Source: a virus
Lineage: Duplodnaviria > Heunggongvirae > Uroviricota > Caudoviricetes
IMG/VR virus record: IMGVR_UViG_3300033077_000655
Direction: 5' to 3' (one strand)
DNA: 31,529 nt
Shown here: positions 4,531-30,147 of the stretch, in pieces
How positions within the stretch are numbered: the first letter of the stretch is position 1
Layout: each line of letters opens with the position of its first letter
Notes under the pieces: generated by a model
The model's input: the letters and a program-made list of their open reading frames with translations, nothing else
The model's database searches: none
Told to the model about the DNA's origin: nothing
Translations under genes and position numbers: made by a program

Positions 4531-4548
4531 TTTGTATTGTCGTATAAT
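4520..4548 (+). promoter_or_regulatory. Sigma70-like early promoter P5 (upstream of the VWA gene)
   Basis: TTGACC (4520-4525), 17 bp, TATAAT (4543-4548). Confidence 0.8.
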
Positions 4549-4572
4549 ATATACATTAACAAGGAACGATCT

Positions 4573-7901: not shown

Positions 7902-9416
7902 ATGATTAATAAAAAAATTCTTTGCATAGGAAACGAAACTGAACACAGCGATCAACTGGTATCAGCCCTTGCAACAAAAGAGTTAACTACTAATCATGGG
8001 TTAGTTTCCTCAAGTACATTCTGTCCAACACATGCCGGGTATTATCATACCAGCATTGCCGATATTGCAGCAGGCGCTATTGTTCAAGGTCTAGTCAAAC
8101 ACTTTGATCAGATCATAATGCTTGATCAAGATGTTGATTCTTACCCGCATTTTAAATCTTTTGTGAACACGTTCAGGCTCATGATAGAATTAGAAAAGAA
8201 AGAGTTCAACACAGACTTTAGAAATAACACCGGCAACAAAACTATCATGTATTGGTATAATTTATTAAACACCAATAAGAGCATGTGTGCGTATCCTTTT
8301 ATAGGTTTACAAAATGATTACGGGTGGGTCAACTTGTGTCAGAAAAACCCTAAACCATTGACCAAATTAGAATCAATTGTAGATTGGCCCACTGCTCCGG
8401 GATTCACTCCTATTAGAAATAACATGATAGCCGGTATACCAATGCCGGACAATTGCAATATTTGTTATCAGCGAGAAGAACTCAGTGGTGAATCTGCTAG
8501 ACAATTTGAATCACTTGAATGGTTCATACGATTGAGACTAAACAGTGTAGAAGATTTAAAAAGTATAAAAAATCCTGTCTATCTCGAAGTTCGTCCCAGC
8601 AACAAATGTAATATCATGTGCCGCATGTGTGATGGCAGATCTAGTCATTTAATACAAAAAGAAAATAAAAAATTTGGTTTTCCGTTAGTCTCGGACCAGT
8701 ATCATATGCAAGGTACAGTACCTTATGACAAGATAAATTTTGATACACTACAACGTATACATTGGTCCGGCGGTGAAGCAACTGTACAACCTGAATTTTA
8801 CGCATTCTTAAAGAAATGTATCAAAGAAAAACAAACCAGTTTTGATCTCAGCATCGGCACAAATGGGAAAAAAATCAGCGATACATTACTGGATCTACTG
8901 GACCAGTTTCCAAGTGTGACTTTTAGTGTGAGTTTTGATGGTTATAAAAAAGTAAATGACTACATCAGATGGGGCACAGACTTTGACTCTCTAAGAGAAA
9001 ATTGCTATCGCATACTGGAGAAAGGTCACACTTTGGCATTTCAAACAGTGTTTAGCATGTACAATGCCACACGTATTCATGAGATTTACGAATTTTATGA
9101 TCAAGATTTTCCTGGGCAAAATGCACTAGTGCAACCTGCTGGTATGTTTGACGAATACCTTGGTCCGTGGCATCATCCATTAAGACAACAAGTATTAGAG
9201 TCAATGTATCGTTGCAAAGACACACAAGTGTATTACAACAGCGGACGCAACACCAATAACTTGGTAGACGAAGTTATAGATCGTTACAACACATATGATT
9301 ACAATCCTGCTATATTGAAACAATTTTTCCATTACAATGATAATTTAGATCGAGCAAGAAATAGTCGGGCAGGTGACTATATTCCTGAATTAGAACAAGC
9401 CAGAAAATATTGTTAA
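7902..9416 (+). CDS. Radical SAM protein with N-terminal unknown domain and N-terminal twitch/SPASM-like Cys domain
   Basis: CNIMCRMC (CxxxCxxC), WSGGEA, TNG. Upstream Cys motifs CAYPF-x12-C and CNIC. An extra ~125-aa N-terminal domain begins KKILCIGNE. AAGGA RBS. Confidence 0.9.
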   Translation: MINKKILCIGNETEHSDQLVSALATKELTTNHGLVSSSTFCPTHAGYYHTSIADIAAGAIVQGLVKHFDQIIMLDQDVDSYPHFKSFVNTFRLMIELEKKEFNTDFRNNTGNKTIMYWYNLLNTNKSMCAYPFIGLQNDYGWVNLCQKNPKPLTKLESIVDWPTAPGFTPIRNNMIAGIPMPDNCNICYQREELSGESARQFESLEWFIRLRLNSVEDLKSIKNPVYLEVRPSNKCNIMCRMCDGRSSHLIQKENKKFGFPLVSDQYHMQGTVPYDKINFDTLQRIHWSGGEATVQPEFYAFLKKCIKEKQTSFDLSIGTNGKKISDTLLDLLDQFPSVTFSVSFDGYKKVNDYIRWGTDFDSLRENCYRILEKGHTLAFQTVFSMYNATRIHEIYEFYDQDFPGQNALVQPAGMFDEYLGPWHHPLRQQVLESMYRCKDTQVYYNSGRNTNNLVDEVIDRYNTYDYNPAILKQFFHYNDNLDRARNSRAGDYIPELEQARKYC

Positions 9417-11690: not shown

Positions 11691-11695
11691 AATGT

Positions 11696-11702
11696 TATTT
11701 AT
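11696..11702 (-). promoter_or_regulatory. T4-late-like promoter candidate ATAAATA for the HNH gene
   Basis: The minus strand reads GATAAATAACATTATG: ATAAATA lies 5 nt before ATG11690. Confidence 0.4.
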
Positions 11703-11728
11703 CAATCATTCCGTTTATTGGCTATTAA

Positions 11729-14591: not shown

Positions 14592-15714
14592 GATTAGAAT
14601 TGACGAAATTTACGAAAATACATTTTTGTCGTGGGTTAAACAAAATTTACCTAATACAGCCATCTACTATCACGATACGTTTGGCCGCAGCGACCCCGAA
14701 AGCATATTATGTAGAAGTTTTAGTACAGCAAAAGACGAAACTAGTTTCATTTATTTCTTTGATCAAGAACCGTTAATCTTGGGGTATCATCAATCCACTT
14801 TTGATAGCGTTAAAGAATGTAACATGATAACTAATGAATATGGCAATAGAGTGAGAAAAAAGGGCATTGTTGTGGTCAGTGAAACTGCCAGTGACAACAT
14901 GGATTATATATGTAAACAACAAGAATTGCAACCTTTTTATTATTTCTTTCATGGGTGGGCTGTACTAGATTGGTATCGAGGATATAATCGAACTTTTTTA
15001 ATAACTCCCTGGCAACAGAGACAAATTAAAAAAACGTTCTTTAGTGCAAATCGAATCATTGGCGGACTTAGACAGCATCGAGTATTGATGTTGTATCATT
15101 TTGAAAAACTAGGCCTTATGCATAATTGGATAAGTGCTAGTGCAATATGTCCAGCTGAACATATCGATATCAAAGAGATTGCTAATCATTACGTCAACCA
15201 GTATCCTGACATTGTTGATGTTATTAGCAAGATAGATCTACCCAAACTATTCCCCGGTGAGGACACGCCTCGAATGAGTAGTTGTTGGTTAGATCAATTT
15301 GAACTCTGCGCTGAAAGTTTGGTGTATCATGTGACAGAAACTGTGTATACCGGACGCAGATTACAGCTTACAGAAAAAACATTCAAACCCATAGCACTAG
15401 GTATGCCATTTGTACTCACAGCCACGGCAGGCAGTTTAGAATATCTTCGCAGTTATGGGTTTAAAACATTTGGAAATTTTTGGGACGAAAGTTATGATCT
15501 TGAAATTGACGATTTTGCCCGAGCTGAAAAAGTAGCTGCGGTATTGAAAAAATTAGATGACTTATCTACCTCTGCAAAACAAGAATTATTCGAAGCATGT
15601 TGGCCAATCATTGAACACAATTGGAACTGGTTCTATCAAGGTAACTTTGAATCTGTATTGTGGCAAGAACTGTCAGACATGTTGTATTCAATCAAATTAT
15701 ATTTGGCCCCATGA
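14590..15714 (+). CDS. Putative glycosyltransferase, GT10/GT-B-like paralogue 1
   Basis: HVTETVY...LTEKTFKPIALGMPF...LRSYGFKTF...DESYD resembles the FEN...TEK donor-binding motif of GT10 fucosyltransferases (inference). Confidence 0.6.
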   Translation: MIRIDEIYENTFLSWVKQNLPNTAIYYHDTFGRSDPESILCRSFSTAKDETSFIYFFDQEPLILGYHQSTFDSVKECNMITNEYGNRVRKKGIVVVSETASDNMDYICKQQELQPFYYFFHGWAVLDWYRGYNRTFLITPWQQRQIKKTFFSANRIIGGLRQHRVLMLYHFEKLGLMHNWISASAICPAEHIDIKEIANHYVNQYPDIVDVISKIDLPKLFPGEDTPRMSSCWLDQFELCAESLVYHVTETVYTGRRLQLTEKTFKPIALGMPFVLTATAGSLEYLRSYGFKTFGNFWDESYDLEIDDFARAEKVAAVLKKLDDLSTSAKQELFEACWPIIEHNWNWFYQGNFESVLWQELSDMLYSIKLYLAP

Positions 15715-16898
15715 TTTATATAGCAATTGACCATATCCATCCAGTATCACGTAGGCCTATGCCCAATGGAATACCCGAGCATCAGCACGATCAGTTGGAT
15801 TACATGGATGGTCGACGTTTAGATTTTCCTCGAATTATTTACTATCTCCGCGATTGCAAAATATCTTCTCGTATAATTAGTACCGCCGATGCACCCAATC
15901 ATGCATGGTATCCAATGGTGTTAGGATGGTTTGACTTTTCACAAGACTATTTTGGTATGATCAGCAATGCTGCTTTTATGCGTATAAAGAAAAAAGAAAT
16001 GAAACTGGTATTCACTTATCACGAAGGTGACCATCCTGGTTCTATACGCAACCGACTGGATGATCTTTGTCAGCAGTATAACATTGATCCTGAATTAGTA
16101 TGGTTGATTTCTGGTAATTCCTCCGCAGATCAATATCACAATACTGTGTACTGGCCTGAATTGGAATTCATGTACTGGCGTACTGTTGATCGTGAGTCGG
16201 GGGCAAAGTATCATTTGAATACAAGATCACGTGCGTATACTGGACTGTGTAGAATTGACAAACTGTGGCGCAAGGTATTCATGAGTGAGCTGTGGAGTCA
16301 GGGATTACACAATCGTGGATACTTTAGTTACAATCAACATCTGTTGGGGAGTGAAGATGATTACTTTGGATGTGCATTAAACAACAATTATCTTGCTGCA
16401 AGTCAATCAAGAGTGGATGATTTTATTGCGGCAGGCCCGTTCCGTGTGGACAATCTTGATACTGTTGCCCATAACAAATACAATCTCAACATGACAGAAA
16501 TGTATTCTGACAGTTATTTTAACATTGTGTTAGAAACCATGATTGATGTAGATGCGTCCAGCGGGCAGTTTGTTACAGAAAAAACATGCAAACCCATATT
16601 CAACAATCAATTCTTTGTGGTAGTTAGTTCGGTTGATCACCAAAGACACTTGCGTGATTTAGGATATCGGACCTTTGGCCGTTGTATAGATGAAAGTTAT
16701 GATTCAATTTCCAACAATCAAGATCGATTTGAAGCTGTGTTAGAATTAACTAAAAAGTTAGCCAGGACCGAGCTAGACCAATTGCATGAGTTATATACGG
16801 AGTTGGCTCCCGAGATACAACATAATTCTCAGATATTCATTGAAGGTATGGGGTATCGATTACAAGCTGTAGTAGATCGTATTAACTACAAACAGTAA
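15711..16898 (+). CDS. Putative glycosyltransferase, GT10/GT-B-like paralogue 2 (start moved from 15660)
   Basis: YFNIVLET...VTEKTCKPIF...LRDLGYRTF...DESYD; ATG15711 overlaps the upstream TGA. Confidence 0.6.
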   Translation: MIYIAIDHIHPVSRRPMPNGIPEHQHDQLDYMDGRRLDFPRIIYYLRDCKISSRIISTADAPNHAWYPMVLGWFDFSQDYFGMISNAAFMRIKKKEMKLVFTYHEGDHPGSIRNRLDDLCQQYNIDPELVWLISGNSSADQYHNTVYWPELEFMYWRTVDRESGAKYHLNTRSRAYTGLCRIDKLWRKVFMSELWSQGLHNRGYFSYNQHLLGSEDDYFGCALNNNYLAASQSRVDDFIAAGPFRVDNLDTVAHNKYNLNMTEMYSDSYFNIVLETMIDVDASSGQFVTEKTCKPIFNNQFFVVVSSVDHQRHLRDLGYRTFGRCIDESYDSISNNQDRFEAVLELTKKLARTELDQLHELYTELAPEIQHNSQIFIEGMGYRLQAVVDRINYKQ

Positions 16899-18363
16899 TG
16901 CCATACAAACGCTGAAATCTATCTGCATCTGCACGATCATTTACCATTGGTTCTCCACGTATATTCAAGCTGGTGTTTAATAACATAGGACAGCCAGTCA
17001 TGAAATGCCATTTTTCTAATAGCAATCGAATTCCTGATCTATCTGCCGGAACTGTCTGTACACGACTGGTGCCGTCATGATGAACAATAGCAGGAAATAA
17101 TTCTGGATTTCTACAAGTGGCTACCACTTGCATGTATCTGCTGTTGCTCCAATGTTTGGGCATATCAAAATATTGATCAACGTATTCTTCAAGGATAACT
17201 GGTGCAAATGGTCTAAACTTTTGGCGTCGTTTGATTTCATTCACTTTGTTCTTGATTGAATGTCCTCGTGGATCAGCTAGTAGACTTCTATTGCCTAATG
17301 CTCTTGGTCCAAATTCTGCACACCCTGATGCAACACCAACAATGCGATCAGTTAGTAGCCCGTCAAGTATACTGTTAACAGGATACTCACCAACAATGTT
17401 GTGCCCGAGAAAAGCAGTATCCCACTTGAGATGGCGGCCCATTCCAAGAGCTGCTGCACCAAGACTATTGCCAGCATCCCCAGGATTAGGCATGATCCAG
17501 ATGTTTTTATAGAACGCTCCTAGCTGGCTGTTGGCCACACAGTTCAACGCTACTCCGCCTCCATAAACTAGATTACGACTGCGTCCTATCATTCTAGCAC
17601 GACTGATAATGTTGCGTATCAGTTGCTCTACTAGCAATTGTGCGCTGCAAGCAATATCCATTGGGTCAGCATTGGGCAAGAAGTTATCATCAACTCCAAT
17701 ATGCAAATTTTGCACGAACTGAGAATTATCTTTAGAATTCACCAGTTGCTGCTGCATTTCACGCAGATACTTAGGCTGGCCGTATGCTGCCATTCCCATG
17801 AGAATGTATTCTTCGTCTAAGGGTCGGAGTCCTACCCGTCGAGTCATAGCTGAATAAAACAATCCAAGGCTATGTGGATATTGCTGACTCCACAATTTCT
17901 TGTACTGGGCACAACCAGTGTCATCATTGTATGCTGCATCCCATATGGACACTGTGTCAAACTCACCAATGGCATCTATCACTACCACTGTGGCATCATC
18001 GTACGGACTGGTTTGGAATCCTGCTGCTGCATGGCATAGATGATGTGCATGTGTATGTATACGTGGTCTATTCAAATCATTGTAGGTATTGCCTAGTAAT
18101 CGATTCCAAGTTGGCCATTGAAATCCTTCTCCGCTACGTAGCTGTCTAAATGCTTTTATCCAGGGACGTTCATAATAGTGATATTCAACTTGGTCCGAAT
18201 CAACATGTGCTAACGCATCTAAAACTAATTCAAGACATATATCTTTATCGTGTTTTTTTTTGCTATAGCGTTCGCTATGTGCAGCAAACAAAATATCGCC
18301 AGAAGAATTCACTACACTGACAGCAGCGTCATGAAATCCAGCTGATATTCCCATGTAGTTCAT
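16882..18363 (-). CDS. Carbamoyltransferase (NodU/CmcH/TobZ family)
   Basis: GISAGFHDAAV, HHLCHA, VIDAIGE, HSLGLFYS, MGMAAYG, GGVALNCVAN, PGDAG, EFGPRALGNRS, FRPFAP, SRVQTV, LLNTSLNIRGEP. Confidence 0.95.
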   Translation of the reverse strand: MNYMGISAGFHDAAVSVVNSSGDILFAAHSERYSKKKHDKDICLELVLDALAHVDSDQVEYHYYERPWIKAFRQLRSGEGFQWPTWNRLLGNTYNDLNRPRIHTHAHHLCHAAAGFQTSPYDDATVVVIDAIGEFDTVSIWDAAYNDDTGCAQYKKLWSQQYPHSLGLFYSAMTRRVGLRPLDEEYILMGMAAYGQPKYLREMQQQLVNSKDNSQFVQNLHIGVDDNFLPNADPMDIACSAQLLVEQLIRNIISRARMIGRSRNLVYGGGVALNCVANSQLGAFYKNIWIMPNPGDAGNSLGAAALGMGRHLKWDTAFLGHNIVGEYPVNSILDGLLTDRIVGVASGCAEFGPRALGNRSLLADPRGHSIKNKVNEIKRRQKFRPFAPVILEEYVDQYFDMPKHWSNSRYMQVVATCRNPELFPAIVHHDGTSRVQTVPADRSGIRLLLEKWHFMTGCPMLLNTSLNIRGEPMVNDRADADRFQRLYGITVCS

Positions 18364-18461
18364 TTATAGATAAATGGGTCTCTTTTGCGCAGTTCTTTTA
18401 ATTTTTTACGATAGCGAATCTCAAGGGTAATCTTTGCCCATAAACGTTTTATCCAGTTCAT
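18360..18461 (-). CDS. 33-aa basic, aromatic-rich small protein (not in ORF track)
   Basis: MNWIKRLWAKITLEIRYRKKLKELRKRDPFIYK. ATG18461 overlaps the upstream TGA and its own TGA overlaps the carbamoyltransferase ATG (ATGA at both ends), exactly filling the gap. Confidence 0.85.
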   Translation of the reverse strand: MNWIKRLWAKITLEIRYRKKLKELRKRDPFIYK

Positions 18462-19498
18462 TTTAATTTCCTTATTTGTTGTTGATCATAGTCCGGATCA
18501 GTCCAGTTATACTCATATGTAGCGTCTGATTCAGCTGTGCGTATTTTATATACATCTAGATGTGCTGCCAACTGCGTCCATATCTGCCTGTAATCTGTGG
18601 TTCCAAAGCTGCGTAGTAGATCCACTTGAGCTATCTTAGGATGGCCTATGGTTAACAATTTATCTTCAGGATCAAACCCATTTTTTACTAACCATTCTCG
18701 AAACTCGTTGAGTATTTTAATCTGCCAAGGAAATGTGCCTGGGTCATTGGCCCATTCAATATCAAAATCTCCAGCAGCTTCAGTCTGTGCTCGCATTGCA
18801 AGTGTAACTAGTTCTCCTACCCGACTGTCACGTCCTTCATCATTGAATACTTCCCAATGGTGTTTGCCTACTGCTTTATTTACTCCCACATACACGCCGC
18901 CTAATTGACGATTAATTGTTTCAATTCCAAACAACTCATAATCCTTGGTATCTAACGTAAATCGTGGAGCCTTGAGCCAACACATTAGCTGCGACGGCCT
19001 GCGCCATTCAGGTGCGTCTTTTAGCTTACGCATACTTAATATCAAACTTTCAAGTTCATGACATAACAAATTCAACTGGCGTATATGCCACCGTGTGGTA
19101 TCATCAGCGGCTGTGTAGTAAGGACTCATTGCTCCTGACACCCCTTGCAGATCTTCAAAGTATCTATGTAATAGATTCATGTGAGCATGGTTGGTCTTGC
19201 CATCCTCTGCTATTGTATTAGCCGGACTGTAAGAATCCTGTATAGTATATCCTAAATCTGCTGCATTTACAGCATGAATACTGCGATTAATTTGTGTACA
19301 CAGATATTCTAATGTCCGAGCACTTTCAGTCCACCCGACCCAACAATAGTTTTTTTCTAAATGATAGTTGTACTCAAGTAGATGATTCAATGATGTCATC
19401 CACTTACGTGCAATACTGTTGTGATACACATCAATATACACAGTCAATATGTGATTATTGTTGCCGCGTAAATCTATTTCAATTGAATTGTTAAGCAT
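18458..19498 (-). CDS. Hypothetical protein, 346 aa
   Basis: Long ORF overlapping both neighbours; no CxxxCxxC; His-containing segments HMNLLHRYFEDLQG and LNLLCHELE. Confidence 0.85.
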   Translation of the reverse strand: MLNNSIEIDLRGNNNHILTVYIDVYHNSIARKWMTSLNHLLEYNYHLEKNYCWVGWTESARTLEYLCTQINRSIHAVNAADLGYTIQDSYSPANTIAEDGKTNHAHMNLLHRYFEDLQGVSGAMSPYYTAADDTTRWHIRQLNLLCHELESLILSMRKLKDAPEWRRPSQLMCWLKAPRFTLDTKDYELFGIETINRQLGGVYVGVNKAVGKHHWEVFNDEGRDSRVGELVTLAMRAQTEAAGDFDIEWANDPGTFPWQIKILNEFREWLVKNGFDPEDKLLTIGHPKIAQVDLLRSFGTTDYRQIWTQLAAHLDVYKIRTAESDATYEYNWTDPDYDQQQIRKLK

Positions 19499-20780
19499 TG
19501 TTCATCCACCATTTCAATACGTCTGGTCTTGATGCCAGGATATCTGTCATTGTTATCCGTTGAGTACGTATTTGTTCTAATTGTAGCACACGAGCACGAC
19601 CTTGAGCAATACCTTGTTTGTATTCGTTGGGCCATTGTTCTTCAAATGTGGGTCGATTTTTTAATTGTATAAGTACATCTTGCATGGCACCGTGTGTATT
19701 GGGTATTAGTTCGTCCAGCCATGGTTCTAATAAGTGTCTTGGCAATGCCAATGGACTCATTACAATTTCAGGACCAAATGAGAAGATAACCTTAGCCAGG
19801 ATATCTACATTTAATTGTCTAGCAAGTTCTGTAATGTTGGCAATTTCAAACATTCCAGGCAAGGTGAGAGTAAAGTCAATTCTAACTTGACGTGGGTGCT
19901 GTTGTATTGCAACTGCGGCATGAAAGTTTTCAAGCCATCGATTATAATCAAGCCCTGTTCTAATGTATTCCCCAATTGCACCTGTACCGTCAAGACTTGC
20001 ACATATCTGCCAATCTCTAAGTTCAGGAAGAATGTCTCGATAGAGATTGATCCCACGGTATTCCATCCTGGACAAGTTGGTATTATATCTAGCATATACT
20101 CTGGGTCCATCTTTTAGTTCTATAATACGTTGCATGTATCGCCAATGCTGTTCGTACATCAATGGCTCGCCGCCAACCCAGTATACTTCTTCTACTCTGT
20201 GCTGTTCCACAGCATTACTAAATTCGTGTTCAATTTGACTGTCTTGAAACTTGGAAATTTGTTCTCTAACGTCAGGCTTCATCCAGTTGTTTTTAGGATC
20301 AGTCCAGTTGATCATGCTGTGAGTTTTTTGTTCTGTTTCCCATGCACTACTTAACATATCTCCGCAAGTTCTACATTTGAAATTGCACAAATTGCTGAAT
20401 CTATAATCCCAGCTGACTGGTAATGTATCACAAGTACCATCCTCGTGTGTGGATGACATTAATTCATCATATTTGTGTTTAAATAGGTGCCAAAAGTATG
20501 TTCGATAAACATCAGTGTTTAACAACTGATCATTACACACTTCACATTCGGGCAACTTCTCTCCTGCCATCATACGTTTACGCACAGATCGCATGTGATC
20601 GTTGTTCCAGTGTTGTTCTAATGTGATAGGTACATATGCACCGGTACCAGATTCAGTATCTATATATTGTGTAAAGTTCTGAGCTGGTTCTCGACTGGCA
20701 CAACACATACGTCTTTCAGTTTGTGGCGAGAGATATGTATGCACCCACGGTGCTAAACATAAGGTATCAGGTTTTAACAT
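19491..20780 (-). CDS. Radical SAM protein with N-terminal twitch/SPASM-like domain (subtype A)
   Basis: CLAPW...RMCC, CEVC, CNFKCRTC, VGGEP, YNTN, ASLDG. ATG20780 is preferred over TTG20786. Confidence 0.92.
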   Translation of the reverse strand: MLKPDTLCLAPWVHTYLSPQTERRMCCASREPAQNFTQYIDTESGTGAYVPITLEQHWNNDHMRSVRKRMMAGEKLPECEVCNDQLLNTDVYRTYFWHLFKHKYDELMSSTHEDGTCDTLPVSWDYRFSNLCNFKCRTCGDMLSSAWETEQKTHSMINWTDPKNNWMKPDVREQISKFQDSQIEHEFSNAVEQHRVEEVYWVGGEPLMYEQHWRYMQRIIELKDGPRVYARYNTNLSRMEYRGINLYRDILPELRDWQICASLDGTGAIGEYIRTGLDYNRWLENFHAAVAIQQHPRQVRIDFTLTLPGMFEIANITELARQLNVDILAKVIFSFGPEIVMSPLALPRHLLEPWLDELIPNTHGAMQDVLIQLKNRPTFEEQWPNEYKQGIAQGRARVLQLEQIRTQRITMTDILASRPDVLKWWMNNA

Positions 20781-21978
20781 AGCCAAGTATCTCTGACAAT
20801 TCAGGTGCTAGTTTAGCCAAGTTTTGATTTCTACGGTGATCTAATAGTTGAATCTGAGATCTTGTTTCTTTGCCATCCATTGATTCCCCGTTGTTCATAA
20901 AATTAATAATTCGTTCAAAATCTAATCGATATACTTCAGGAGTATCGCACATGCTGAGATAACTTGCAATTTCTTGCTTGGCATCTGCAGGTAGCCTTGA
21001 TATTGAAAAATACCAAGCATCATGCATTATATTCCAATATACAAAATCAAAAGATTGCTCAATTATCCATTGTGCCACTTGGTCAAGATATCTCACATTG
21101 AATACATTTACTGTGGTGCAGCATTGCAACTGTAGATTAGGCAGTTGTTCTCGCAAGGATCTAAATTGATTTAAATTTTGTTCTACTTCTTGCCATACTG
21201 CATTACTACGTTGATATTCAAAACGCGGACCAATGTCATCAATGCTGAATGCTACTTCTACAGTTTTAAAGTGTTTCCATAGGTCAGGTCCACGATCAGG
21301 AAACAACGTACCATTGGTGTTATAATGTATCTCAACTTGGTCAGCTATGCCACGATTTATTAGACCTTGCAACATATCAAAGTGTTGATCAATCATAAAT
21401 GGTTCACCGCCAGTGAATTCTATATGTCGTATATCTGTCAGTATCAAATCAATTTGCTGCCAGAAATGGGTATTTTCTCTAGGCCATGCACCTGCTTTCA
21501 TCATCTTATAAGCATGACTGGATTTTTGTTCTGCTCTGGGCATGAATGAAATCTCTTCTCCGGCAAATTGCGAACTTGACCAAGGTCCGCAAATCCTACA
21601 TTTGAGATTGCAGATATTGCCCAGTTTGAGATCTAAGAACATTAAAGGTTTTGTATCATGACTCCAGCTATCATCTAGGAGTGTGTGTTTAAGACGATCT
21701 AATGTGTGCATACGTTTAGATTTGCGGCCTGACTCTTCTTCGTTCCAACATTTGCGACAAGTTTTAGGCTGTTGTCCCGACAAGAACTCTGTTCGCAACT
21801 GACGCATGTGATTGCTATTTTGTATGTCGGCAAAGTCAGCAGTGTCCAATTTGAATTTGTTTCCGTTGTTGTCTAGAATTTCGTCGTCGGCCAAACAGCA
21901 AGGCCGTACAGTGCCAACAGGACTGGCTTCCATACTAATCCACGGTAACACACAGAATTTATTGTGGGGTAAGTTCAT
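20767..21978 (-). CDS. Radical SAM protein with N-terminal twitch/SPASM-like domain (subtype A) (start moved from 22011)
   Basis: CVLPW...RPCC, CRKC, CNLKCRIC, TGGEP, YNTNG, FSIDD; ATG21978 overlaps the upstream TGA. Confidence 0.92.
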   Translation of the reverse strand: MNLPHNKFCVLPWISMEASPVGTVRPCCLADDEILDNNGNKFKLDTADFADIQNSNHMRQLRTEFLSGQQPKTCRKCWNEEESGRKSKRMHTLDRLKHTLLDDSWSHDTKPLMFLDLKLGNICNLKCRICGPWSSSQFAGEEISFMPRAEQKSSHAYKMMKAGAWPRENTHFWQQIDLILTDIRHIEFTGGEPFMIDQHFDMLQGLINRGIADQVEIHYNTNGTLFPDRGPDLWKHFKTVEVAFSIDDIGPRFEYQRSNAVWQEVEQNLNQFRSLREQLPNLQLQCCTTVNVFNVRYLDQVAQWIIEQSFDFVYWNIMHDAWYFSISRLPADAKQEIASYLSMCDTPEVYRLDFERIINFMNNGESMDGKETRSQIQLLDHRRNQNLAKLAPELSEILGYVKT

Positions 21979-23375
21979 AATATGTCTAAATAAGAAAATA
22001 ACAACCGCCAATTGGTAGATCGTCGACGATCCAATTCGTTGAGATACACATGTAATTGTTTTATAGAAAATAGATCATTATGAGAACTTTGCTTTAGCAA
22101 ACTCTGTAACCCTTGCATGCGTGGAATAGCTTCTCTTTGTGCATCTGTATTTGTGGGCATGGCATTTAATATTTTTTCAAAATCATCTTTCCAAAAATCC
22201 CAAGCAAATATTTTGGGATGTTGAAACATGTGTGGCCCGGTATAAAATTGAAAATAGTGTCCAATATGTTTATATTTACTGTAGTGGGTTATTTTGTCAA
22301 TCAATCCTGGCATGGTTTTTACAGTCATAGCAGTAACAGTCTGATTGACATTGAGTCGTAACCAGTCATCTTGCTGAATTGCCCAGGCAATTCTTTTTTC
22401 AAACTTATCTAAATCAAGTCCAGATCTTACATATTCTTGTTCAGGGCCCCAGCAGTCTATGCTGGCTGTGAGATCAAATACTCTTATGTTTCCTTTCATC
22501 TGTAATGCATGGATTCGATCCATATAATAATTCCACCATTTGTCAGGAACATTGCAATTACTAAAAATAGAAAATTCTAAATTTGGACTAGGATTGCGTT
22601 CTAATATATCCAGTACTGAATTCATCAGCTTGTGTTGTATAAATGTTTCCCCTCCTAGCAAATGCAGACGAATCAGCTGTTGTATGTTTTTTTCTAACCA
22701 GGCAAGAAATCGATCAAAGTATTTGTCGGTTGCTGCTGTAGGAACTGATACAATTGGTATTCTTACATTGTCCTGGATAAATTCACCATGCTTGAGATTT
22801 TCTTGTTCAATTTTGCTACTCAAAGATCCATTGCAATAAATGCAACTTAGATTACAGGTATTCTGAGCAAATATTTCTACTATGCGAGGTGTCACTGAAA
22901 TAGCAGTAGGGTCTAACTCAAGTTCAGGAGGAGTAAGTCCGCGTATATCTAAATTATGTTGTCGATCGCTCCACCCACCTGAATTTTCAATCTCCTGGCA
23001 ATATTCACATCCGCCCGTGGGCCATTTGCCTTCCAGCATGAGTTGACGGTCAGCAAGTTTTTTAGGAATATTATGAAAATTATCAAAATTATCTAGTTCA
23101 AACGGTATTGGATCTACACGATGACAACTGGCTGTGGCAAGTTGATTGAGATAGATTGTGCTCCAGGTCCATTTGCTTTGACAAGCTGTGGCAGTTTTGA
23201 TAGGAAACATTATGCCTTGTTTACGATGCTGTTTAATGTATGCGTCTAGCTCTTGGTGTATCTCTAATTTTTCTCCCCGGGATCCTTGCAAGAAATCAGT
23301 ATACAACGGCCAATCAGGTCCAGCTATTTCTTTATAATCTGTTTCAGTTATATATAGATGTAGATTTTTTTCCAT
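21975..23375 (-). CDS. Radical SAM protein with N-terminal twitch/SPASM-like domain (subtype B) and a short GPDWP-containing extension
   Basis: CQSKW...ASCHR, CEYC, CNLSCIYC, LGGET, FSN, ASID; N-terminal YKEIAGPDWPLYTDF. Confidence 0.9.
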   Translation of the reverse strand: MEKNLHLYITETDYKEIAGPDWPLYTDFLQGSRGEKLEIHQELDAYIKQHRKQGIMFPIKTATACQSKWTWSTIYLNQLATASCHRVDPIPFELDNFDNFHNIPKKLADRQLMLEGKWPTGGCEYCQEIENSGGWSDRQHNLDIRGLTPPELELDPTAISVTPRIVEIFAQNTCNLSCIYCNGSLSSKIEQENLKHGEFIQDNVRIPIVSVPTAATDKYFDRFLAWLEKNIQQLIRLHLLGGETFIQHKLMNSVLDILERNPSPNLEFSIFSNCNVPDKWWNYYMDRIHALQMKGNIRVFDLTASIDCWGPEQEYVRSGLDLDKFEKRIAWAIQQDDWLRLNVNQTVTAMTVKTMPGLIDKITHYSKYKHIGHYFQFYTGPHMFQHPKIFAWDFWKDDFEKILNAMPTNTDAQREAIPRMQGLQSLLKQSSHNDLFSIKQLHVYLNELDRRRSTNWRLLFSYLDIL

Positions 23376-23383
23376 ATATTAAT

Positions 23384-25090
23384 CTATAATAAACTTTGGA
23401 GTTCGGGTATAATATCTAACAATTTTTCTGAACGTATATTATCTAGTTCATGAGTCTTGCGCCAAAAAGTATCAATGAGATTAGTGTTGTCTGTGGCCAT
23501 CATAAAATTAATAGCCGACTCAAATCCCGACGTGGCTCGATTTAGTTTATCTTTTGTGATTAACCATTCTAAGTGTTCTTGATATTTCACCCGCAGACGT
23601 TGCTTGTACTTGATAGGAGCAATGTCAATTCGATAATATTCTGGATCTTGCAATATGTTTACATTGAGATCTTGAGGTTTTATGAATCCTCGTTTGACCC
23701 AGTCTTGATGGAAATCAGGAAGATGCCATGCATTCATTATGCTAAGAGTGGGGGAGATATAGAAGTCCACTTGTGGACACACTTGCAACATCTCAATCCT
23801 ATTTTGCTCAACTTGTTTCCAATCTGTACCTTTGCGTATGTATTCAGCATATTTTCCTGAACCATCAAGACTGGCACCTACTGATACGCTATCAAATAGT
23901 TTCCAATATTCAAAAACACTTTTACCTTTAAGATCTGTATGTGTGAAGTTTGTGTTGTAAATCAATCTAACCTCAAATCGTTCTCGACGAACAAGTTCGT
24001 CCAGGATTTGATAATGTTCTTCCATTAACAAAGGCTCGCCACCGGCAAAGTATATCTGTTCTACATAATCAATGTGCGGCAACAACTGCTCCCATACATC
24101 AGTTTCTGTACGCCCTGCATAATTCAATACCTGATTTTGTTTTTTCCATTCGCTGCCGGCCAGTTTGGATTGATCTTGATACCATTGGCTAGAGAAAATA
24201 TGGCCACAACTACGACATTTGAGATTGCAGAGGTTTGAAAAACGGATATCCCAATATATCATCTCAAATCTATCTAATGTTCCGTTATCTTTTGTTTCTG
24301 CAATTCGATTAATTAGATGCCCATGATGTTTATTTGCTGACTTCCTTCCTGAGAAGAATCCAGAAATTTCTTGTTCATAGCATTTAGTACAGGCAGTGCT
24401 GCTTTTCTCAGACAACATGTTTACTCTAAGCTGCTTCATTGGGGTGTCATTCCATATTTCTGACATGGTATTAGTTCTTAGATTGCCTACTTGACCTACA
24501 GGATCGCTCATGCAGCATGGAAATGCTTGTCCGGTAGGCCAGGCATGCAAATGGGTCCACGGGTACATACAAAATTTTTCACTGTCTGCTAACAAAAATT
24601 TCTCACGTTCACTTAATTGATTTAAATTGATCTTGAGTGGATTAGAGGATCCATATTGATATATTTCTTTTTTTCCGGAAGGATGGTGTTTGACAACCAC
24701 AGGAACATTGGTTCCTTCATCAACATACATACCGGTGATAGGAATAACATCCGAACTAATTTTGGTCACAAACTCAAGTTCTTGATTCAAATTAAGATTG
24801 TTGGATAATATGATAATAAAAAAGTTGCTAACATCCACTTTGTTGGCAATTATTTGCAGATTTTTTAAGATAAGACCCACACTGTCATTTTTTACATATA
24901 TATCGCCACTTTTTTGGATAAACAAGATGCGCTGATTATCGGTGTATTCATCTCTGTGTATTCTTTTAAATTCTGAATCTAACCAAATCTGAGCATATTC
25001 ATAAGACATGCTATGCCAATGATCAAGTTCAACGACCGCAAGTATATCATGCTGTTTTTTTAATTGATCAATTTGTTCTTGAAATGTCAT
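23384..25090 (-). CDS. Radical SAM protein with N-terminal twitch/SPASM-like domain (subtype A) and a ~170-aa N-terminal extra domain (start moved from 25105)
   Basis: CMYPW...FPCC, CTKC, CNLKCRSC, AGGEP, YNTN, ASLDG; ATG25090 overlaps the upstream TGA. Confidence 0.92.
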   Translation of the reverse strand: MTFQEQIDQLKKQHDILAVVELDHWHSMSYEYAQIWLDSEFKRIHRDEYTDNQRILFIQKSGDIYVKNDSVGLILKNLQIIANKVDVSNFFIIILSNNLNLNQELEFVTKISSDVIPITGMYVDEGTNVPVVVKHHPSGKKEIYQYGSSNPLKINLNQLSEREKFLLADSEKFCMYPWTHLHAWPTGQAFPCCMSDPVGQVGNLRTNTMSEIWNDTPMKQLRVNMLSEKSSTACTKCYEQEISGFFSGRKSANKHHGHLINRIAETKDNGTLDRFEMIYWDIRFSNLCNLKCRSCGHIFSSQWYQDQSKLAGSEWKKQNQVLNYAGRTETDVWEQLLPHIDYVEQIYFAGGEPLLMEEHYQILDELVRRERFEVRLIYNTNFTHTDLKGKSVFEYWKLFDSVSVGASLDGSGKYAEYIRKGTDWKQVEQNRIEMLQVCPQVDFYISPTLSIMNAWHLPDFHQDWVKRGFIKPQDLNVNILQDPEYYRIDIAPIKYKQRLRVKYQEHLEWLITKDKLNRATSGFESAINFMMATDNTNLIDTFWRKTHELDNIRSEKLLDIIPELQSLL

Positions 25091-26418
25091 AATGAGTTGT
25101 ACCAAGTTTTTAATGCCGGAAATACCATGCCAAAGTCTTTGCCGCGACGTTGATCATATTGTGTATAAAATTGCTTAAAGTCGTTGTGTAACTTAGGCAT
25201 TTCAAATGATTCACTATGCGGAGTTTTTACCACGTCAAGATAATCAATCAGTCGTTGTAACTGGTTAATTTCATGTTCATGCAAAGATTCACTGTGTTGA
25301 TTAACCACAAGCCAGGACTCTAATGTGTGTGCATACTGCATACGTAAATTGTCGGGCAATACCAATGGTGATTGAAAACTAGGAAAGCGCAGTATGTTCA
25401 ATGTAAAACTCAATGCATCGCGCCCATATTCAGTTTTCCATTGCAACATGCATTCTAAAAATTGATCTAATGTATCCAGGCACAATGCATTGATTGTGTT
25501 CATTACATGTATACCTCGAAATTTTCCGCTGTCCAACAGTCGTTCTACATTGTTGGCCCAGTCATCCCAGACCAATCCATCTCTAATGTATTCGGCTTGT
25601 GCCCCAATGCTTTCATTGGAAGTATATATATCTACCTCGAGACCTTGTATACTGGTCATTAGCCGATCAAGATCTACTGCTGTGCCCAAGTTTGAGTTGA
25701 TGGCCAATCGTGTGTGACTGCGCCCGGGATTGTTTTTGAACCAGTCAATTAATTTCCAGGTATCACCACTCATCAGTGGCTCGCCTCCGGTTATTCGAAG
25801 TTCTTGTAGTGTTTGATGAAGATCCGTTTCCCACCATTTAAAAAATGCTTCAACATAGGGATTAGATTCACCAAACTTATACAGTTGACTAGATTCATGT
25901 ATATGAGTAAAGTGATTGCGGCCATCACTAACCAACCCTGTGTATGCTCCATGCTTTCGTATATCATTGACCCAGGTACTGCTGAAAGCAGGATTGCAAT
26001 AACTACAAGCAAACTGGCAAGTGCGGTCAAACGCAATTTCAAGTGTGCGTAAATTGACATCTTGATCAACTGGGGTGTTAAAGGCTTCATTTAATAACTC
26101 TATAGGGTAAATTTTACTCTTGTACACACGGTCACTGATGGCATCACGTCCAATGTCTTCGATCTTCCAGCAATATTCACAGCCCGACGGCCGATCACCA
26201 TGCTGCATTTGATCACGTTCAAATTTCTTTTTTGTGGTGTTATGTAATGCTGATGGATTGTGTTTGATATCATTTACGTTTATAGCATGAGCCGGGGGAT
26301 GATGACAACTGGTAGTCATGCCACTGCCTAACCAGATGGTAGCATTGTACCATTTGGCTGCACAAAAACTTTCACTTAGATTGTCTAGTACAGTGCGTTT
26401 AAAATCTAAATCGTTCAC
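25087..26418 (-). CDS. Radical SAM protein with N-terminal twitch/SPASM-like domain (subtype B)
   Basis: CAAKW...TSCHHPP, CEYC, CQFACSYC, TGGEP, INSN; GTG start overlapping the upstream TGA. Confidence 0.92.
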   Translation of the reverse strand: MNDLDFKRTVLDNLSESFCAAKWYNATIWLGSGMTTSCHHPPAHAINVNDIKHNPSALHNTTKKKFERDQMQHGDRPSGCEYCWKIEDIGRDAISDRVYKSKIYPIELLNEAFNTPVDQDVNLRTLEIAFDRTCQFACSYCNPAFSSTWVNDIRKHGAYTGLVSDGRNHFTHIHESSQLYKFGESNPYVEAFFKWWETDLHQTLQELRITGGEPLMSGDTWKLIDWFKNNPGRSHTRLAINSNLGTAVDLDRLMTSIQGLEVDIYTSNESIGAQAEYIRDGLVWDDWANNVERLLDSGKFRGIHVMNTINALCLDTLDQFLECMLQWKTEYGRDALSFTLNILRFPSFQSPLVLPDNLRMQYAHTLESWLVVNQHSESLHEHEINQLQRLIDYLDVVKTPHSESFEMPKLHNDFKQFYTQYDQRRGKDFGMVFPALKTWYNSL

Positions 26419-27530
26419 AAGTTATTTTGTATAAAGTTGGAGAAACGGGACGGAAATTCATCACGTATCTGTGGGCCTATATCAGCCATATATTGTTGAT
26501 TATACTTACTTATTGACTGGGCTGCGACCAGGAATTGATTCAGATCGCTTGAACATAAATCTTCAACCACTTGTGCCATTCGGTCTAACCGATCTTGATT
26601 GTTGTCTATTAGATCAAATGATTCGTCAATGAGAGTGTGATAAGTTTTGAATCCCATGTTATGTAGATCTCTATAGAATCCACGATTGGCCACAACCACA
26701 AACGGGTGACCCATAGCAATGGGTTTATAAATCTTTTCAGTCCGAAAACTATAAGGATAATCAAATACAGTTTCAGTTACCAAACTAAAATAGGTATCAA
26801 TGTACGGTTCGGCACGAATGTATACATCGCCCCACTGGTTGTTGAACAGTTCGTGCTTGATAAACGATTGTTGATATTGATCTTTAACACCGTCGAGATA
26901 TTGTTCTACTTCATATTCAACTGGCAATAGCTGTATCTCGGATGGTCTGCTTAGTAGATCAGTTTGATATGTGTGATGATATGCAGGAGTTGTATCTAGA
27001 TTGGTCCAAAGTGCATGTTCCAATAAATGCGCATCACGCATCTTTTCTATCATGTATTTTCTGTGAGGACGAGTGCGTCCATTTAAGAATAAAAATTTGT
27101 AAGGTTTGTTTAGTTTATGGTATATTTCATCTACACGAGTACCTTGCTCAATATTTTGTTCATAGCCCGAGACTCGATTGAGATAGCAATCGTAAACCAA
27201 ACAATTGAGTTCAGGTTCCATCTCCCCGCCTCCTATCAACAGTAATTTCCTTTGAGCAACTAGCTCTAGCAGTCCCAGTCGTTGACATTGAAGTTTAAGT
27301 ACAATCGACCCTTCACTTGGGTTGGCCAACACAGGTAAAAAGAATCCTGTAGTGGCCAATTCTTTTATCTTTATGTAATGTTGATTTACTGTTTGTCTGG
27401 CAAAGATTGTGATTGAATTGGCCTGCGGCTCATGCTGATCAAAATCCCAAAATGTATCATCTACTAGATGTTTGATTTCGGGATAAATTTCGCAGGCGGT
27501 ATCGCAAATGATCTTTCGATTATCTAGCAT
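26415..27530 (-). CDS. Putative glycosyltransferase, GT10/GT-B-like paralogue 3
   Basis: KFLFLNGRTRPHR, YFSLVTETVF...RTEKIYKPIAMGHPF...GFKTY...DESFD; no radical SAM motif. Confidence 0.6.
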   Translation of the reverse strand: MLDNRKIICDTACEIYPEIKHLVDDTFWDFDQHEPQANSITIFARQTVNQHYIKIKELATTGFFLPVLANPSEGSIVLKLQCQRLGLLELVAQRKLLLIGGGEMEPELNCLVYDCYLNRVSGYEQNIEQGTRVDEIYHKLNKPYKFLFLNGRTRPHRKYMIEKMRDAHLLEHALWTNLDTTPAYHHTYQTDLLSRPSEIQLLPVEYEVEQYLDGVKDQYQQSFIKHELFNNQWGDVYIRAEPYIDTYFSLVTETVFDYPYSFRTEKIYKPIAMGHPFVVVANRGFYRDLHNMGFKTYHTLIDESFDLIDNNQDRLDRMAQVVEDLCSSDLNQFLVAAQSISKYNQQYMADIGPQIRDEFPSRFSNFIQNNL

Positions 27531-28884
27531 GTAAACTACACTGTCTCCACCAAGTGATCATTTCTGGAAAGGTGTTTTCAAAGTTTGTACCTCTACGGCG
27601 GTCGTGTTCGGTAAAAAATCTATAGAAATCTGCCTGTGCAGTGGGTTGCGGCGGTGCCGACCTCATCCAGGCTATGTCACGTTCAAGACGTTGAACTTCG
27701 TAGTCTTTGAACCCGTGAAACGGATCATCAGCAGTTTCAAGATTTGCCAACATAAAGTCTCTGGCCTGTTCTAGTTTTGAAGCATAGCTTTCTGGTAGGG
27801 TCTGTAGACTTTGCCAAGCAGGTTGGCGTAGTACAGGCGTGTCAAACCATACACGTTGATATGTTTTACTGTGTGTGCAACGTAGAGCCAGTATCCATTG
27901 CATCAGTGGCAAAAATCCTGTTACACTTAGATTGTTCATGGTGACAATAAATGTAAGACTGTTGCGATAAGGAATGTCCGTGAGATATGTTTCTACATTG
28001 CGTTGTAATCTTTCAAAATTCAATCCATGACGTATGTATTCAGCTTGAGGTCCTATGCCTGAATCAAGACTCACATACTGCATGAAGTGTTCAATGTTGG
28101 TATTACATAGTCGTTGAACATGGTCAAAGTATTTTTGTGATAGTTCGGGCTCTACACTAAAATTTGATGTGACTGCTAAATGCAAATCACTCTTGGGATG
28201 TTCTAACACATAATCAAACACTCGATAGGTGTTTCGATCCATCAAAGGCTCACCACCGGTCATGCGAAAGTGTTTGAGTTCTGGATACAGGGTGGGCCAC
28301 CAGGACCAGAAGGCTTCTACATAAGGGTTGTGATCACGGGCAGGGATAGGCCTGCGATGGCCGCTAAAGTGCTCAGCAGCGTTATGAGGAACCAAAGTAG
28401 GAAAGGCGCCGTGGCGTTCAACTTCTTGTTGCCAGCTAGAGCTAAACTGTGGGCTACAATAGCTGCATTTAAGATTGCAAGCATTGTTGAAATTGACTTC
28501 CACATACGACGGTACAACATCTTCTTCTCCGGTTGAGTTTTTTATCTGTTCAAAATCTACTGCTGCCCAAGGTTCGCCGGATCTGTAATGACGATCACTC
28601 AGCCGGCCAAGATCTTCCATGTTCCAACAATAACTACATTCACTAGGACGTTGTTGTTGCAGCATTATCTTGCGTTGTGCTTTTTTATGCTGGGTATTAT
28701 GCAAAGCCGCAGGATTGATTGCTATTGCATCAGGATCTATTGAATGCAATGGCGGATGATAGCATGAGTTATTTAACCCTGTGGTAAGATGTAAGCTGAC
28801 CTGTTTCCATTTGGCCAAACATAATGCCGGACCAAGATCTGCATGCATCTGTTCAGCAGACGATAGAAAATTGCTTTTGCTCAC
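27520..28884 (-). CDS. Radical SAM protein with N-terminal twitch/SPASM-like domain (subtype B) (start moved from 28953 to GTG28884)
   Basis: CLAKW...NSCYHPP, CSYC, CNLKCSYC, TGGEP, VTSN, VSLDS. GTG28884 lies 5 nt after the upstream stop with GAAGG upstream. Confidence 0.9.
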   Translation of the reverse strand: MSKSNFLSSAEQMHADLGPALCLAKWKQVSLHLTTGLNNSCYHPPLHSIDPDAIAINPAALHNTQHKKAQRKIMLQQQRPSECSYCWNMEDLGRLSDRHYRSGEPWAAVDFEQIKNSTGEEDVVPSYVEVNFNNACNLKCSYCSPQFSSSWQQEVERHGAFPTLVPHNAAEHFSGHRRPIPARDHNPYVEAFWSWWPTLYPELKHFRMTGGEPLMDRNTYRVFDYVLEHPKSDLHLAVTSNFSVEPELSQKYFDHVQRLCNTNIEHFMQYVSLDSGIGPQAEYIRHGLNFERLQRNVETYLTDIPYRNSLTFIVTMNNLSVTGFLPLMQWILALRCTHSKTYQRVWFDTPVLRQPAWQSLQTLPESYASKLEQARDFMLANLETADDPFHGFKDYEVQRLERDIAWMRSAPPQPTAQADFYRFFTEHDRRRGTNFENTFPEMITWWRQCSLHAR

Positions 28885-28889
28885 AAGAA

Positions 28890-29822
28890 TTACCAACCTT
28901 CTTGCTGACGTATCACATCTATTTCTCTTACCATTACACCACGGTTGTGCCAATTGCTGCGATAATGATGTTTGAAAAATGCACTTGCTTCTACTGTGAG
29001 CATGTGCATGGGCAGATCCAATTGTGTATGCAATTCGTTGGCAATGTTGTTGCTCACATGTTCAGGTTGTTCATCTTTTACAGTATTCCATAGTTCTGCT
29101 AATGCATCAAAATTTTGTACCTGTAAGTAATCCCAGTTTGTCAGCATGGTCATATATGTGCCTTGTCGGGCGCCAGCTATGGCCCAGTATCCGTAGTCTG
29201 CATCTGCTCCCACATTGTGCCAAATAGTAAGATGGTCAAGATTGCGTTGATGCACCCGAGCTTGAAATTCAGTCACAGTGGGTCTGCGACCACGATCTAA
29301 GCACATCTTTACACCTTCTCTAAATCCTGCACGCCAAGCATGGAATGCTGATCCATTAGGGTATGTGGTTGAATAGCAGTCATGCATGGACCAGTACAGC
29401 GGATCAAAACAAAACTCAACTTGTGTTTCTGTGCGACCGTCGGTGTTTTCATGTGTGTGCATGGCTTGCACATAGGTTCTGGTCCAGGAACTCAATCCAC
29501 CATTGCCGTACATGAGTCCATTCACATGGTTACGTGCTTTCCATCTAAACACAGCATGTTCATGATCTTCAGTGGGGAATGACAGTGTTTGATTGAAGAA
29601 TTTTGGATCAGGAAGATTGTCACCATCAATCAAGATAAAACGTTCTGTGGTGCTGGCATCAGCTGCTGCTTTATGGGCAGCATCACTGCCTTTGACCCCA
29701 TCTACTCGTGTGGCCCAGGGCACCATATTCCTAATTTTAACCCAGTGTTCTTCCTTCTGTGGTTCATCATATGTTAGATAAACGCAATCCAAGTCTGCTA
29801 TATCAATTTGTGTCAACGACAT
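28890..29822 (-). CDS. Putative GT-A fold glycosyltransferase (start moved from 29867)
   Basis: CVYLTYDEP, RVDGVKGSDAAHKAAA, FILIDGDN (DxD), GLMYGNGG, AWRAGFREGVKM. Confidence 0.65.
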   Translation of the reverse strand: MSLTQIDIADLDCVYLTYDEPQKEEHWVKIRNMVPWATRVDGVKGSDAAHKAAADASTTERFILIDGDNLPDPKFFNQTLSFPTEDHEHAVFRWKARNHVNGLMYGNGGLSSWTRTYVQAMHTHENTDGRTETQVEFCFDPLYWSMHDCYSTTYPNGSAFHAWRAGFREGVKMCLDRGRRPTVTEFQARVHQRNLDHLTIWHNVGADADYGYWAIAGARQGTYMTMLTNWDYLQVQNFDALAELWNTVKDEQPEHVSNNIANELHTQLDLPMHMLTVEASAFFKHHYRSNWHNRGVMVREIDVIRQQEGW

Positions 29823-30147
29823 TTTGTTTTTTCTTCCAATATTGGCCAGGTTGCTGTGCAACCACAACAGTCACATCATTTGAATGGCAAAGTACACCAG
29901 ACTTGCCGGGTACAAGTTTAGTTATTCTGGTTTGTCGCTGGCGTACTAACTTTCCGTCAACGATCTTGACTGAGTGGTCTTGTAATGCAAACTGCTCAGG
30001 AGTGATATCAATATGCTTACCAGGTAAATCTTCATGGCTATAAAATACCGGCTCGCCAACATCATTGTAGTAGAGTCTATAATACACAGGTTTGGGGGCG
30101 GGCCACTGAATGTTTTTCCAAACTTCCAAAAATTCTTCTTCAGTCAT
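29803..30147 (-). CDS. Hypothetical protein, 114 aa (start moved from 30180)
   Basis: ATG30147 with AAGGA upstream, overlapping the upstream stop; YRLYYNDVGEP motif. Confidence 0.7.
   Translation of the reverse strand: MTEEEFLEVWKNIQWPAPKPVYYRLYYNDVGEPVFYSHEDLPGKHIDITPEQFALQDHSVKIVDGKLVRQRQTRITKLVPGKSGVLCHSNDVTVVVAQQPGQYWKKKQNVVDTN

Follow-up and report, generated by a model that had tools for sequence, protein, structure and literature searches.

Seven radical SAM paralogues of family NF033640 in a phage locus carry their auxiliary domain ahead of the core and include two anciently diverged clades

Seven radical SAM genes in the window

We analysed 31,529 nucleotides of viral DNA (Caudoviricetes; IMG/VR record IMGVR_UViG_3300033077_000655), a stretch that we refer to as a whole as the window and in which genes for radical S-adenosylmethionine (SAM) enzymes form an array. 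The window makes up the final 31.5 kb of an IMG/VR viral contig of 125.6 kb, whose CheckV completeness of 36% implies a phage of about 350 kb, and close homologues of the array genes were found on contigs of 347-349 kb. The open reading frame (ORF) listing and translation revealed seven radical SAM ORFs, six of them on the minus strand (19491-28953) and one on the plus strand (7902-9416). They are listed below with their motifs and their scores against the NCBIfam model NF033640; the subtypes A and B are described further on.

27520..28953, minus strand: B3, subtype-B N_Twi radical SAM enzyme (CLAKW, C-x18-CY, CSYC; 309.8 bits)
25087..26418, minus strand: B2, subtype B (CAAKW, C-x18-CH, CSYC; 296.6 bits)
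23384..25105, minus strand: A3, subtype A (398.8 bits over residues 175-572; Pfam SPASM at 179-243)
21975..23375, minus strand: B1, divergent subtype B (CQSKW, C-x18-CH, CIYC; 190.2 bits)
20767..22011, minus strand: A2, subtype A (342.1 bits; Pfam SPASM at 20-89, then Radical_SAM at 130-299)
19491..20786, minus strand: A1, subtype A (CLAPW, C-x17-CC, CRTC; 284.5 bits)
7902..9416, plus strand: A0, divergent third lineage (CAYPF, C-x16-CQ, CRMC; 206.9 bits)

The start of B3 is uncertain and lies at 28953 (TTG) or at about 28884. An earlier reading made from the sequence alone (the sequence-only reading) had ended this gene at 28884, which stands as an alternative start, although the longest ORF reaches 28953. 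A2 probably begins at 21978, giving a protein of 403 amino acids (aa; P0001). A B3 orthologue was present in nearly all of 80 related loci, and homologues of A2 accounted for more than 7,500 of the 8,000 scored candidates, on contigs of up to 348 kb; a megablast search of the array against phage records returned zero matches. A3 and A0 bear N-terminal extensions (about 175 aa and 125 aa, respectively) whose folds were not recognised, and many A3 orthologues do without the extension (419-420 aa). A0 starts 10 bases downstream of ThyX (7224-7892, plus strand).

The auxiliary domain precedes the core

All seven proteins exceeded the curated cut-off (170 bits) of NF033640 (N_Twi_rSAM), with scores of 190.2-398.8 bits that were also confirmed on the DNA. 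The matches ran over nearly the full length of the model, from positions 1-3 to 388-398, and the cut-off was reached by none of 14 control genomes. The family is very large: clustered at 50% identity, it comprised 28,130 clusters at E <= 1e-3 and 7,028 clusters at E <= 1e-30.

An alignment of the seven proteins, numbered by the 19491 protein (A1), showed that four Cys upstream of the core are invariant (C10, C29, C81 and C84, in the pattern C-x17/18-C ... C-x2-C). Also invariant were the CxxxCxxC motif (C134/C138/C141), a Ser five residues beyond it, a GGE motif (G205-G206-E207), N237, S264, R276 of a Tyr-x-Arg element, and the Arg of the C-terminal (D/E)xxR (LDxxR) element. The Cys and SAM motifs held without change in alignments of 88 and 68 sequences.

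The twitch or SPASM auxiliary domain of radical SAM enzymes is normally C-terminal to the core. The sequence-only reading placed an auxiliary Cys domain ahead of the core in these proteins, and this was borne out by the invariant upstream Cys, by Pfam SPASM matches at the N-terminus, ahead of Radical_SAM, in A2 and A3, and by a weak match (E 0.0038) between positions 32-108 of the seven-protein profile and residues 164-242 of BtrN, which form its C-terminal twitch. The same order was seen throughout: in the seven proteins, in the 427 parsed family ORFs of the fetched loci, and in 188 units of diverse family representatives. The inverted order is real but already catalogued, being what defines the curated family that all seven proteins match.

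Predicted clusters and structural models

Conserved Cys in the N-terminal domain number four in clade B and five in clade A, which is enough for one auxiliary cluster and too few for the two auxiliary clusters that a full SPASM domain holds with its seven or eight Cys. In BtrN, the same four-Cys pattern ligates a single auxiliary [4Fe-4S] cluster. Each protein is predicted to hold a radical-SAM [4Fe-4S] cluster at CxxxCxxC, to bind SAM through the GGE and ribose motifs, and to carry one fully Cys-ligated auxiliary [4Fe-4S] cluster in the N-terminal twitch module; from these motifs we infer two clusters per protein. By analogy with BtrN-type enzymes, hydrogen abstraction from the substrate would fall to the 5'-deoxyadenosyl radical, and handling of the electron to the auxiliary cluster. 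Ligation by His in subtype B, which had been raised as a possibility, appears unlikely. The four Cys were invariant in both clades, while the position of the His varied among 66 diverse B units (His in 49, Tyr in 12, other residues in 5). Within the phage loci, Tyr after the second Cys marks the whole B3 orthogroup.

AlphaFold2 modelled both A2 (predicted local distance difference test, pLDDT, 93.9; predicted template modelling score, pTM, 0.91) and B2 (pLDDT 95.9; pTM 0.92) as one compact body each. The N-terminal module was twitch-like: its first two Cys flank a beta-hairpin, and the CxxC sits on the helices that come next. Foldseek and VIA-align, which are sequential aligners, matched the core alone of the A2 model (about residues 109-360), and none of their matches contained the whole architecture in one solved structure. 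In BtrN-type enzymes the auxiliary site lies beside the barrel opening, about 16 Å from the SAM cluster. Strands 1 and 6 flank the same partial-barrel opening, and the N-terminal domain could plausibly occupy the position usually taken by a C-terminal twitch. Viperin-like proteins, BlsE, anSME, DesII and SkfB all tied as matches to the predicted cores (Z of about 12 over about 200 residues), and a function call from fold matches was dropped for that reason.

Two anciently diverged clades

A regular-expression parse of the six array proteins reproduced exactly the two motif sets described in the sequence-only reading. Subtype A has CLAPW/CVLPW/CMYPW, a Cys spacing of 17, CC, and the SAM motifs CRTC/CRIC/CRSC; subtype B has CQSKW/CAAKW/CLAKW, a spacing of 18, CH/CH/CY, and the SAM motifs CIYC/CSYC/CSYC. 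The same reading had counted the 7902 protein (A0) as similar to A, which did not hold: A0 has CAYPF, a spacing of 16 and CQ, and in the IQ-TREE tree it lay on a long branch outside both clades.

Across the window and 84 further fetched loci, the motif states of 427 family ORFs proved all-or-none, with 243 ORFs of the type P/17/C/R-x and 165 of the type K/18/(H or Y)/x-Y; about ten departed from both patterns and a further ten were not parsed. The same two combinations dominated the 188 units obtained from 150 diverse cluster representatives. A FastTree phylogeny of these 188 units placed 67 B units, together with three unparsed ones, on one side of a branch with an SH-like support of 100. In an IQ-TREE mixture-model tree of 63 rows, clades A and B each received 99% in the Shimodaira-Hasegawa-like approximate likelihood-ratio test (SH-aLRT). 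The split was recovered in both trees, and these results establish A and B as two clades of NF033640 that separated long ago.

The residue before the third Cys of CxxxCxxC is usually aromatic in radical SAM enzymes. A functional coupling behind the co-variation of the motifs was not supported. On the tree, only three independent pairs differ in the aromatic trait, and the Cys spacing follows in one of them. With so few independent changes, the co-variation amounts to one ancient split, so that the motifs mark clades and do not indicate coupling between cluster sites. A 349-kb relative (G001, 97% complete) encodes four further family members outside its array (loci L091 and L092; 137.6-139.9 kb and 221.6-222.7 kb), two of which break the A/B rule by mixing an A-type twitch (CxxPW, spacing 17) with the aromatic SAM motifs CVYC and CNYC. 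Like the 7902 protein, these mixed-motif members lie outside both clades. Two distinct chemistries for A and B, as the sequence-only reading proposed, are plausible.

A and B occur independently

The sequence-only reading counted three enzymes of each subtype and suggested that A and B might form obligate pairs. Among the 62 loci whose array is uncut by an edge, 42 contained the conserved core array B3, glycosyltransferase (GT)-like gene, B2, A3, A2 and A1, that is, 3A:2B, and just 10 had a 3A:3B ratio. The extra array enzyme of the window, B1, is a movable accessory cassette. Its orthologues with at least 60% identity were found in eight related loci, with B1-like genes of about 40% identity in others (B1 or B1-like genes occur in L012, L017, L026, L038, L039, L041, L056, L068 and L072). 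B1 or B1-like genes occupied three positions (between A3 and A2, between A2 and A1, and after A1) and were absent from most relatives; in the tree, B1 grouped with a B gene of G001 located outside the array.

Each clade was also found without the other. The cultured Ralstonia phage RsoM2USA, whose genome is complete, encodes two family members in separate places, both of clade B, and A is absent. Conversely, one A-type member and no B above the cut-off was detected in each of five bacterial isolate genomes (Paenibacillus sp., Reichenbachiella faecimaris, Hoeflea poritis, Ancylomarina salipaludis and Agaribacillus aureus).

Natural fusions gave the same picture. Tandem fusions among the representatives comprised 18 of type A-A, one B-B and one A-B (P0129), and the order of the fused units mirrored the array (A3-A2, A2-A1 and B3-B2). 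Single polypeptides of two or three units were seen in P0121, P0124, P0126, P0122 and about 30 other representatives; since representatives tend to be the longest sequences, fusions are over-represented in this set, and some may be assembly or gene-calling artefacts. A complex prediction for the A3 core (residues 170-573) with A2, prompted by the A3-A2 fusions, gave an interface score (ipSAE) of 0.00, which counts neither way.

The conserved phage core array always holds both A and B, and the A-B fusion P0129 would suit a heteromeric enzyme. Even so, the stoichiometry, the solo occurrences and the scarcity of A-B fusions largely refute obligate A/B pairing, which we regard as very improbable. 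Because each clade occurs without the other, A and B are better seen as separate enzymes that differ in substrate or reaction type.

Operon neighbours

Eleven ORFs, from 29867 down to 16882, overlap or lie at most 8 bases apart, and therefore form one translationally coupled operon in the order o325, B3, 371-aa gene, B2, A3, B1, A2, A1, 346-aa gene, 33-aa ORF and carbamoyltransferase. The remaining operon members and the nearby sugar-related and other genes are as follows.

28890..29867, minus strand: o325, a 325-aa orphan upstream of B3, faintly GT2-like (Pfam Glyco_tranf_2_3 at E 0.059 only)
26415..27530, minus strand: 371-aa orphan between B3 and B2, candidate GT10-like glycosyltransferase
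18458..19498, minus strand: 346-aa orphan, coupled to A1 and to the 33-aa ORF; no family match
18360..18461, minus strand: basic micro-ORF of 33 aa with ATGA overlaps at both ends; no family match
16882..18363, minus strand: NodU/CmcH-type carbamoyltransferase, the last operon gene (Carbam_trans_N 8.9e-37, Carbam_trans_C 1.6e-46)
15660..16898, plus strand: 412-aa protein paralogous to the 371-aa orphan; its gene converges with that of the carbamoyltransferase
10048-11037, plus strand: NAD-dependent sugar epimerase/dehydratase (Pfam Epimerase 1.7e-42)
11729-12814, plus strand: DegT-type sugar aminotransferase (Pfam DegT_DnrJ_EryC1 2.5e-56)
11010-11705, minus strand: HNH endonuclease (HNH 5.1e-05), between the epimerase and aminotransferase genes and overlapping the end of the former

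The 371-aa and 412-aa proteins aligned by BLASTP at 7e-18, with 40% identity across a C-terminal motif region. Neither protein matched any Pfam model even at E 1, the GT10 fucosyltransferase model PF00852 (motif FxLxFEN...TEK) included, and the 371-aa protein also had no match in NCBIfam or PHROGs. The latter's nearest Pfam-bearing Atlas clusters were GT10 (score 0.80, a lead only), and the best BLASTP segment of the 371-aa protein to a true GT10 enzyme spans the FxLxxEN...TEK motif region at E 0.29. The 346-aa gene takes the same position in L002, L003 and L004. Searches of Pfam, NCBIfam and PHROGs yielded nothing significant for the proteins of 371, 412, 346, 325, 601 and 374 aa, for the 33-aa ORF, or for the N-terminal extensions of A3 and A0.

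Trp, Tyr, Lys and Arg are abundant in the 33-aa ORF, which was present in 72 of 84 phage-like loci; its C-terminal half is near-invariant and exceeds the enzymes on either side in conservation. The ORF may serve the carbamoyltransferase as an SxtK-like accessory, although it matched no family model; of SxtJ and SxtK, PMC2679770 states only that they accompany SxtI.

The HNH gene is likely a homing or mobile element. A 257-aa gene at 30140-30913 matched phrog_1903 (E 1.7e-05), for which no function is on record. As a separate observation, a MoxR-type AAA ATPase and a putative metallopeptidase (DUF2201) that also has a VWA-like domain are encoded on the plus strand at 2193-3278 and 4537-5868; they are unrelated to the array.

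Proposed function of the operon

The gene context leads us to favour, on balance, a tailoring role for the operon: each paralogue would perform its own radical step on a sugar or glycan made by the phage, and the product would probably be displayed on structural proteins of the virion. The six array genes and A0 are independent, intact paralogues of NF033640. Within the window, the sugar reading draws on the carbamoyltransferase in the operon and on the DegT aminotransferase and epimerase genes a few kb away.

Related loci point the same way. P0159 joins a clade-B unit to a GT2 domain (PF00535, 5.6e-17) in one polypeptide, and on the contig that encodes it (L085; JGI 3300048881, 28.9 kb) nine radical SAM genes are densely interspersed with five GT2 genes. 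In Flavitalea, a true GT10 gene (2.1e-34) lies immediately upstream of an A-type gene, with a NusG/UpxY-like gene alongside, and the vicinity of the family member in L086 includes a sugar epimerase-methyltransferase gene, an RmlD-like gene and a GT2 gene. The link to the virion comes from G001, in which a 4126-aa virion structural protein (phrog_10938, 3.6e-266; an internal segment is baseplate-hub/lysozyme-like) is encoded directly upstream of the array on the same strand (L173 7607-19987, minus strand; about 39.2-51.6 kb in G001). A further structural-like protein is also encoded just upstream of the G001 array, on the same strand.

RsoM2USA retains part of this arrangement (L001, 126.9-128.2 kb and 123.5-125.0 kb; L088, 217.4-218.7 kb). 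Its B2-like gene, gp202 (52% identity to B2), lies 2 kb from the carbamoyltransferase gene gp199 (45% identity to that of the window), and a homologue of o325 (40% identity over 116 aa) adjoins its B3-like gene, as in the window. Both clade-B genes and gp199 are annotated as "hypothetical protein" in the GenBank record, and the RsoM2USA paper makes no mention of radical or carbamoyl enzymes. A more specific scheme, which we offer tentatively and rate as rather doubtful in its full form, is that abundant freshwater jumbo phages display on the virion (or link to DNA) a glycan that receives five to seven radical edits. In this scheme B would work with the carbamoyltransferase and an o325-type partner, a linkage kept even in RsoM2USA, and A would carry out a sequential second reaction, as the natural A3-A2 and A2-A1 fusions suggest.

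Several observations weigh against a sugar or glycan as the substrate. The GT-like neighbours in the window had no significant family match in Pfam, NCBIfam or PHROGs, and most characterised SPASM/twitch enzymes act on peptides. A glycan signature was expected around the single-copy bacterial members and was not seen: a Pfam tally of 59 neighbours was heterogeneous and included genes for an acyl carrier protein, a ketosynthase and a short-chain dehydrogenase/reductase (Paenibacillus), a LytTR regulator (Reichenbachiella) and TerB, so that the family as a whole is not tied to glycans. Several members are, moreover, fused to TPR repeats, which usually bind proteins.

The operon could instead decorate phage DNA, the radical SAM enzymes tailoring a sugar or side chain on a modified base. 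The position of A0 directly downstream of ThyX fits this, as does the L087 locus, where a radical SAM gene adjoins genes for thymidylate synthase and dihydrofolate reductase. We nevertheless consider DNA decoration unlikely: the G001 array adjoins virion structural genes, the bacterial members include ones in polysaccharide-like or lipid-like loci, and a DNA-binding or base-transfer enzyme was not found in the operon.

Still less probable, in our view, is that the enzymes are peptide or protein maturases of the kind that act on ribosomally synthesised and post-translationally modified peptides (RiPPs), cross-linking or epimerising the 33-aa peptide or residues of virion proteins. The peptide substrates and TPR fusions mentioned above speak for it, as do the near-invariant 33-aa ORF embedded in the operon and weak NCBIfam similarities to cyclophane and dynobactin maturases, which stayed far below the cut-offs of those models. 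However, no RiPP recognition element (RRE) or PqqD-like domain was detected in any of the proteins or N-terminal extensions. The 33-aa peptide is confined to the phage group and does not accompany other family members, its ORF adjoins the carbamoyltransferase gene and not a radical SAM gene, and six enzymes for a single 33-aa peptide would be unusual.

We reject the reading that the paralogues are decaying or redundant duplicates, because all catalytic motifs are intact and each paralogue has its own orthologues, 60-97% identical, across about 80 loci.

Significance

To our knowledge, no member of NF033640 has a known reaction. The auxiliary-cluster domain of this architecture lies on the opposite side of the core from that of every solved SPASM/twitch enzyme, which makes the inverted arrangement a natural test of the geometric needs of the twitch domain. 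In widespread freshwater jumbo phages, five to seven paralogues stand in arrays among glycosyltransferase-like genes, which points to a heavily radical-tailored sugar structure, and such a structure could influence host recognition or defence evasion. If a virion or DNA glycan is indeed edited by five to seven radical reactions, a radical SAM family with over 7,000 sequence clusters would gain its first function, and its twitch architecture would be defined as a circular permutation.

The present analysis adds the clade structure of the family (A, B and further lineages) and the evidence for A and B as independent enzymes. We found no paper that describes what the family does, its deep A/B split, the phage arrays with their several paralogues, the fusions, or the RsoM2USA genes as an experimental handle. 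For experimental work, gp202, gp199 and the second B gene of RsoM2USA offer a cultured, tractable entry point.

Comparison with known systems

The closest known system is NF033640 itself, and all seven proteins share its architecture from end to end: an N-terminal twitch and then the radical SAM core. The family record carries no assigned function, and descriptions of the A/B clades, the phage multi-paralogue arrays or the GT2 and TPR fusions were not found. Literature searches on N-terminal twitch or N_Twi_rSAM, on jumbo-phage radical SAM enzymes with glycosyltransferases, and on twitch domains with polysaccharides returned nothing relevant.

The SPASM maturases anSME, SkfB, CteB and SuiB share the fold of the radical SAM core (Foldseek E 5e-7, Z 11-12), and the Pfam SPASM model also matches the N-terminal domain of A2 and A3. 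They differ from the array proteins in domain order and in predicted cluster number: the N-terminal domain of the array proteins has four or five conserved Cys, consistent with one cluster and not two, and no RRE was detected. The 33-aa ORF alone qualifies as a possible precursor-peptide gene, and it shows no linkage to the family outside the phage group.

BtrN, a 2-deoxy-scyllo-inosamine dehydrogenase and the founding twitch enzyme, acts on an aminosugar-like substrate and shares the four-Cys pattern C-x17/18-C ... C-x2-C with the array proteins; a sugar-related context is a plausible further likeness. Its core is no closer to the array cores than are those of viperin, BlsE, anSME and DesII. 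The twitch follows the core in BtrN, whereas in the array proteins it comes before it.

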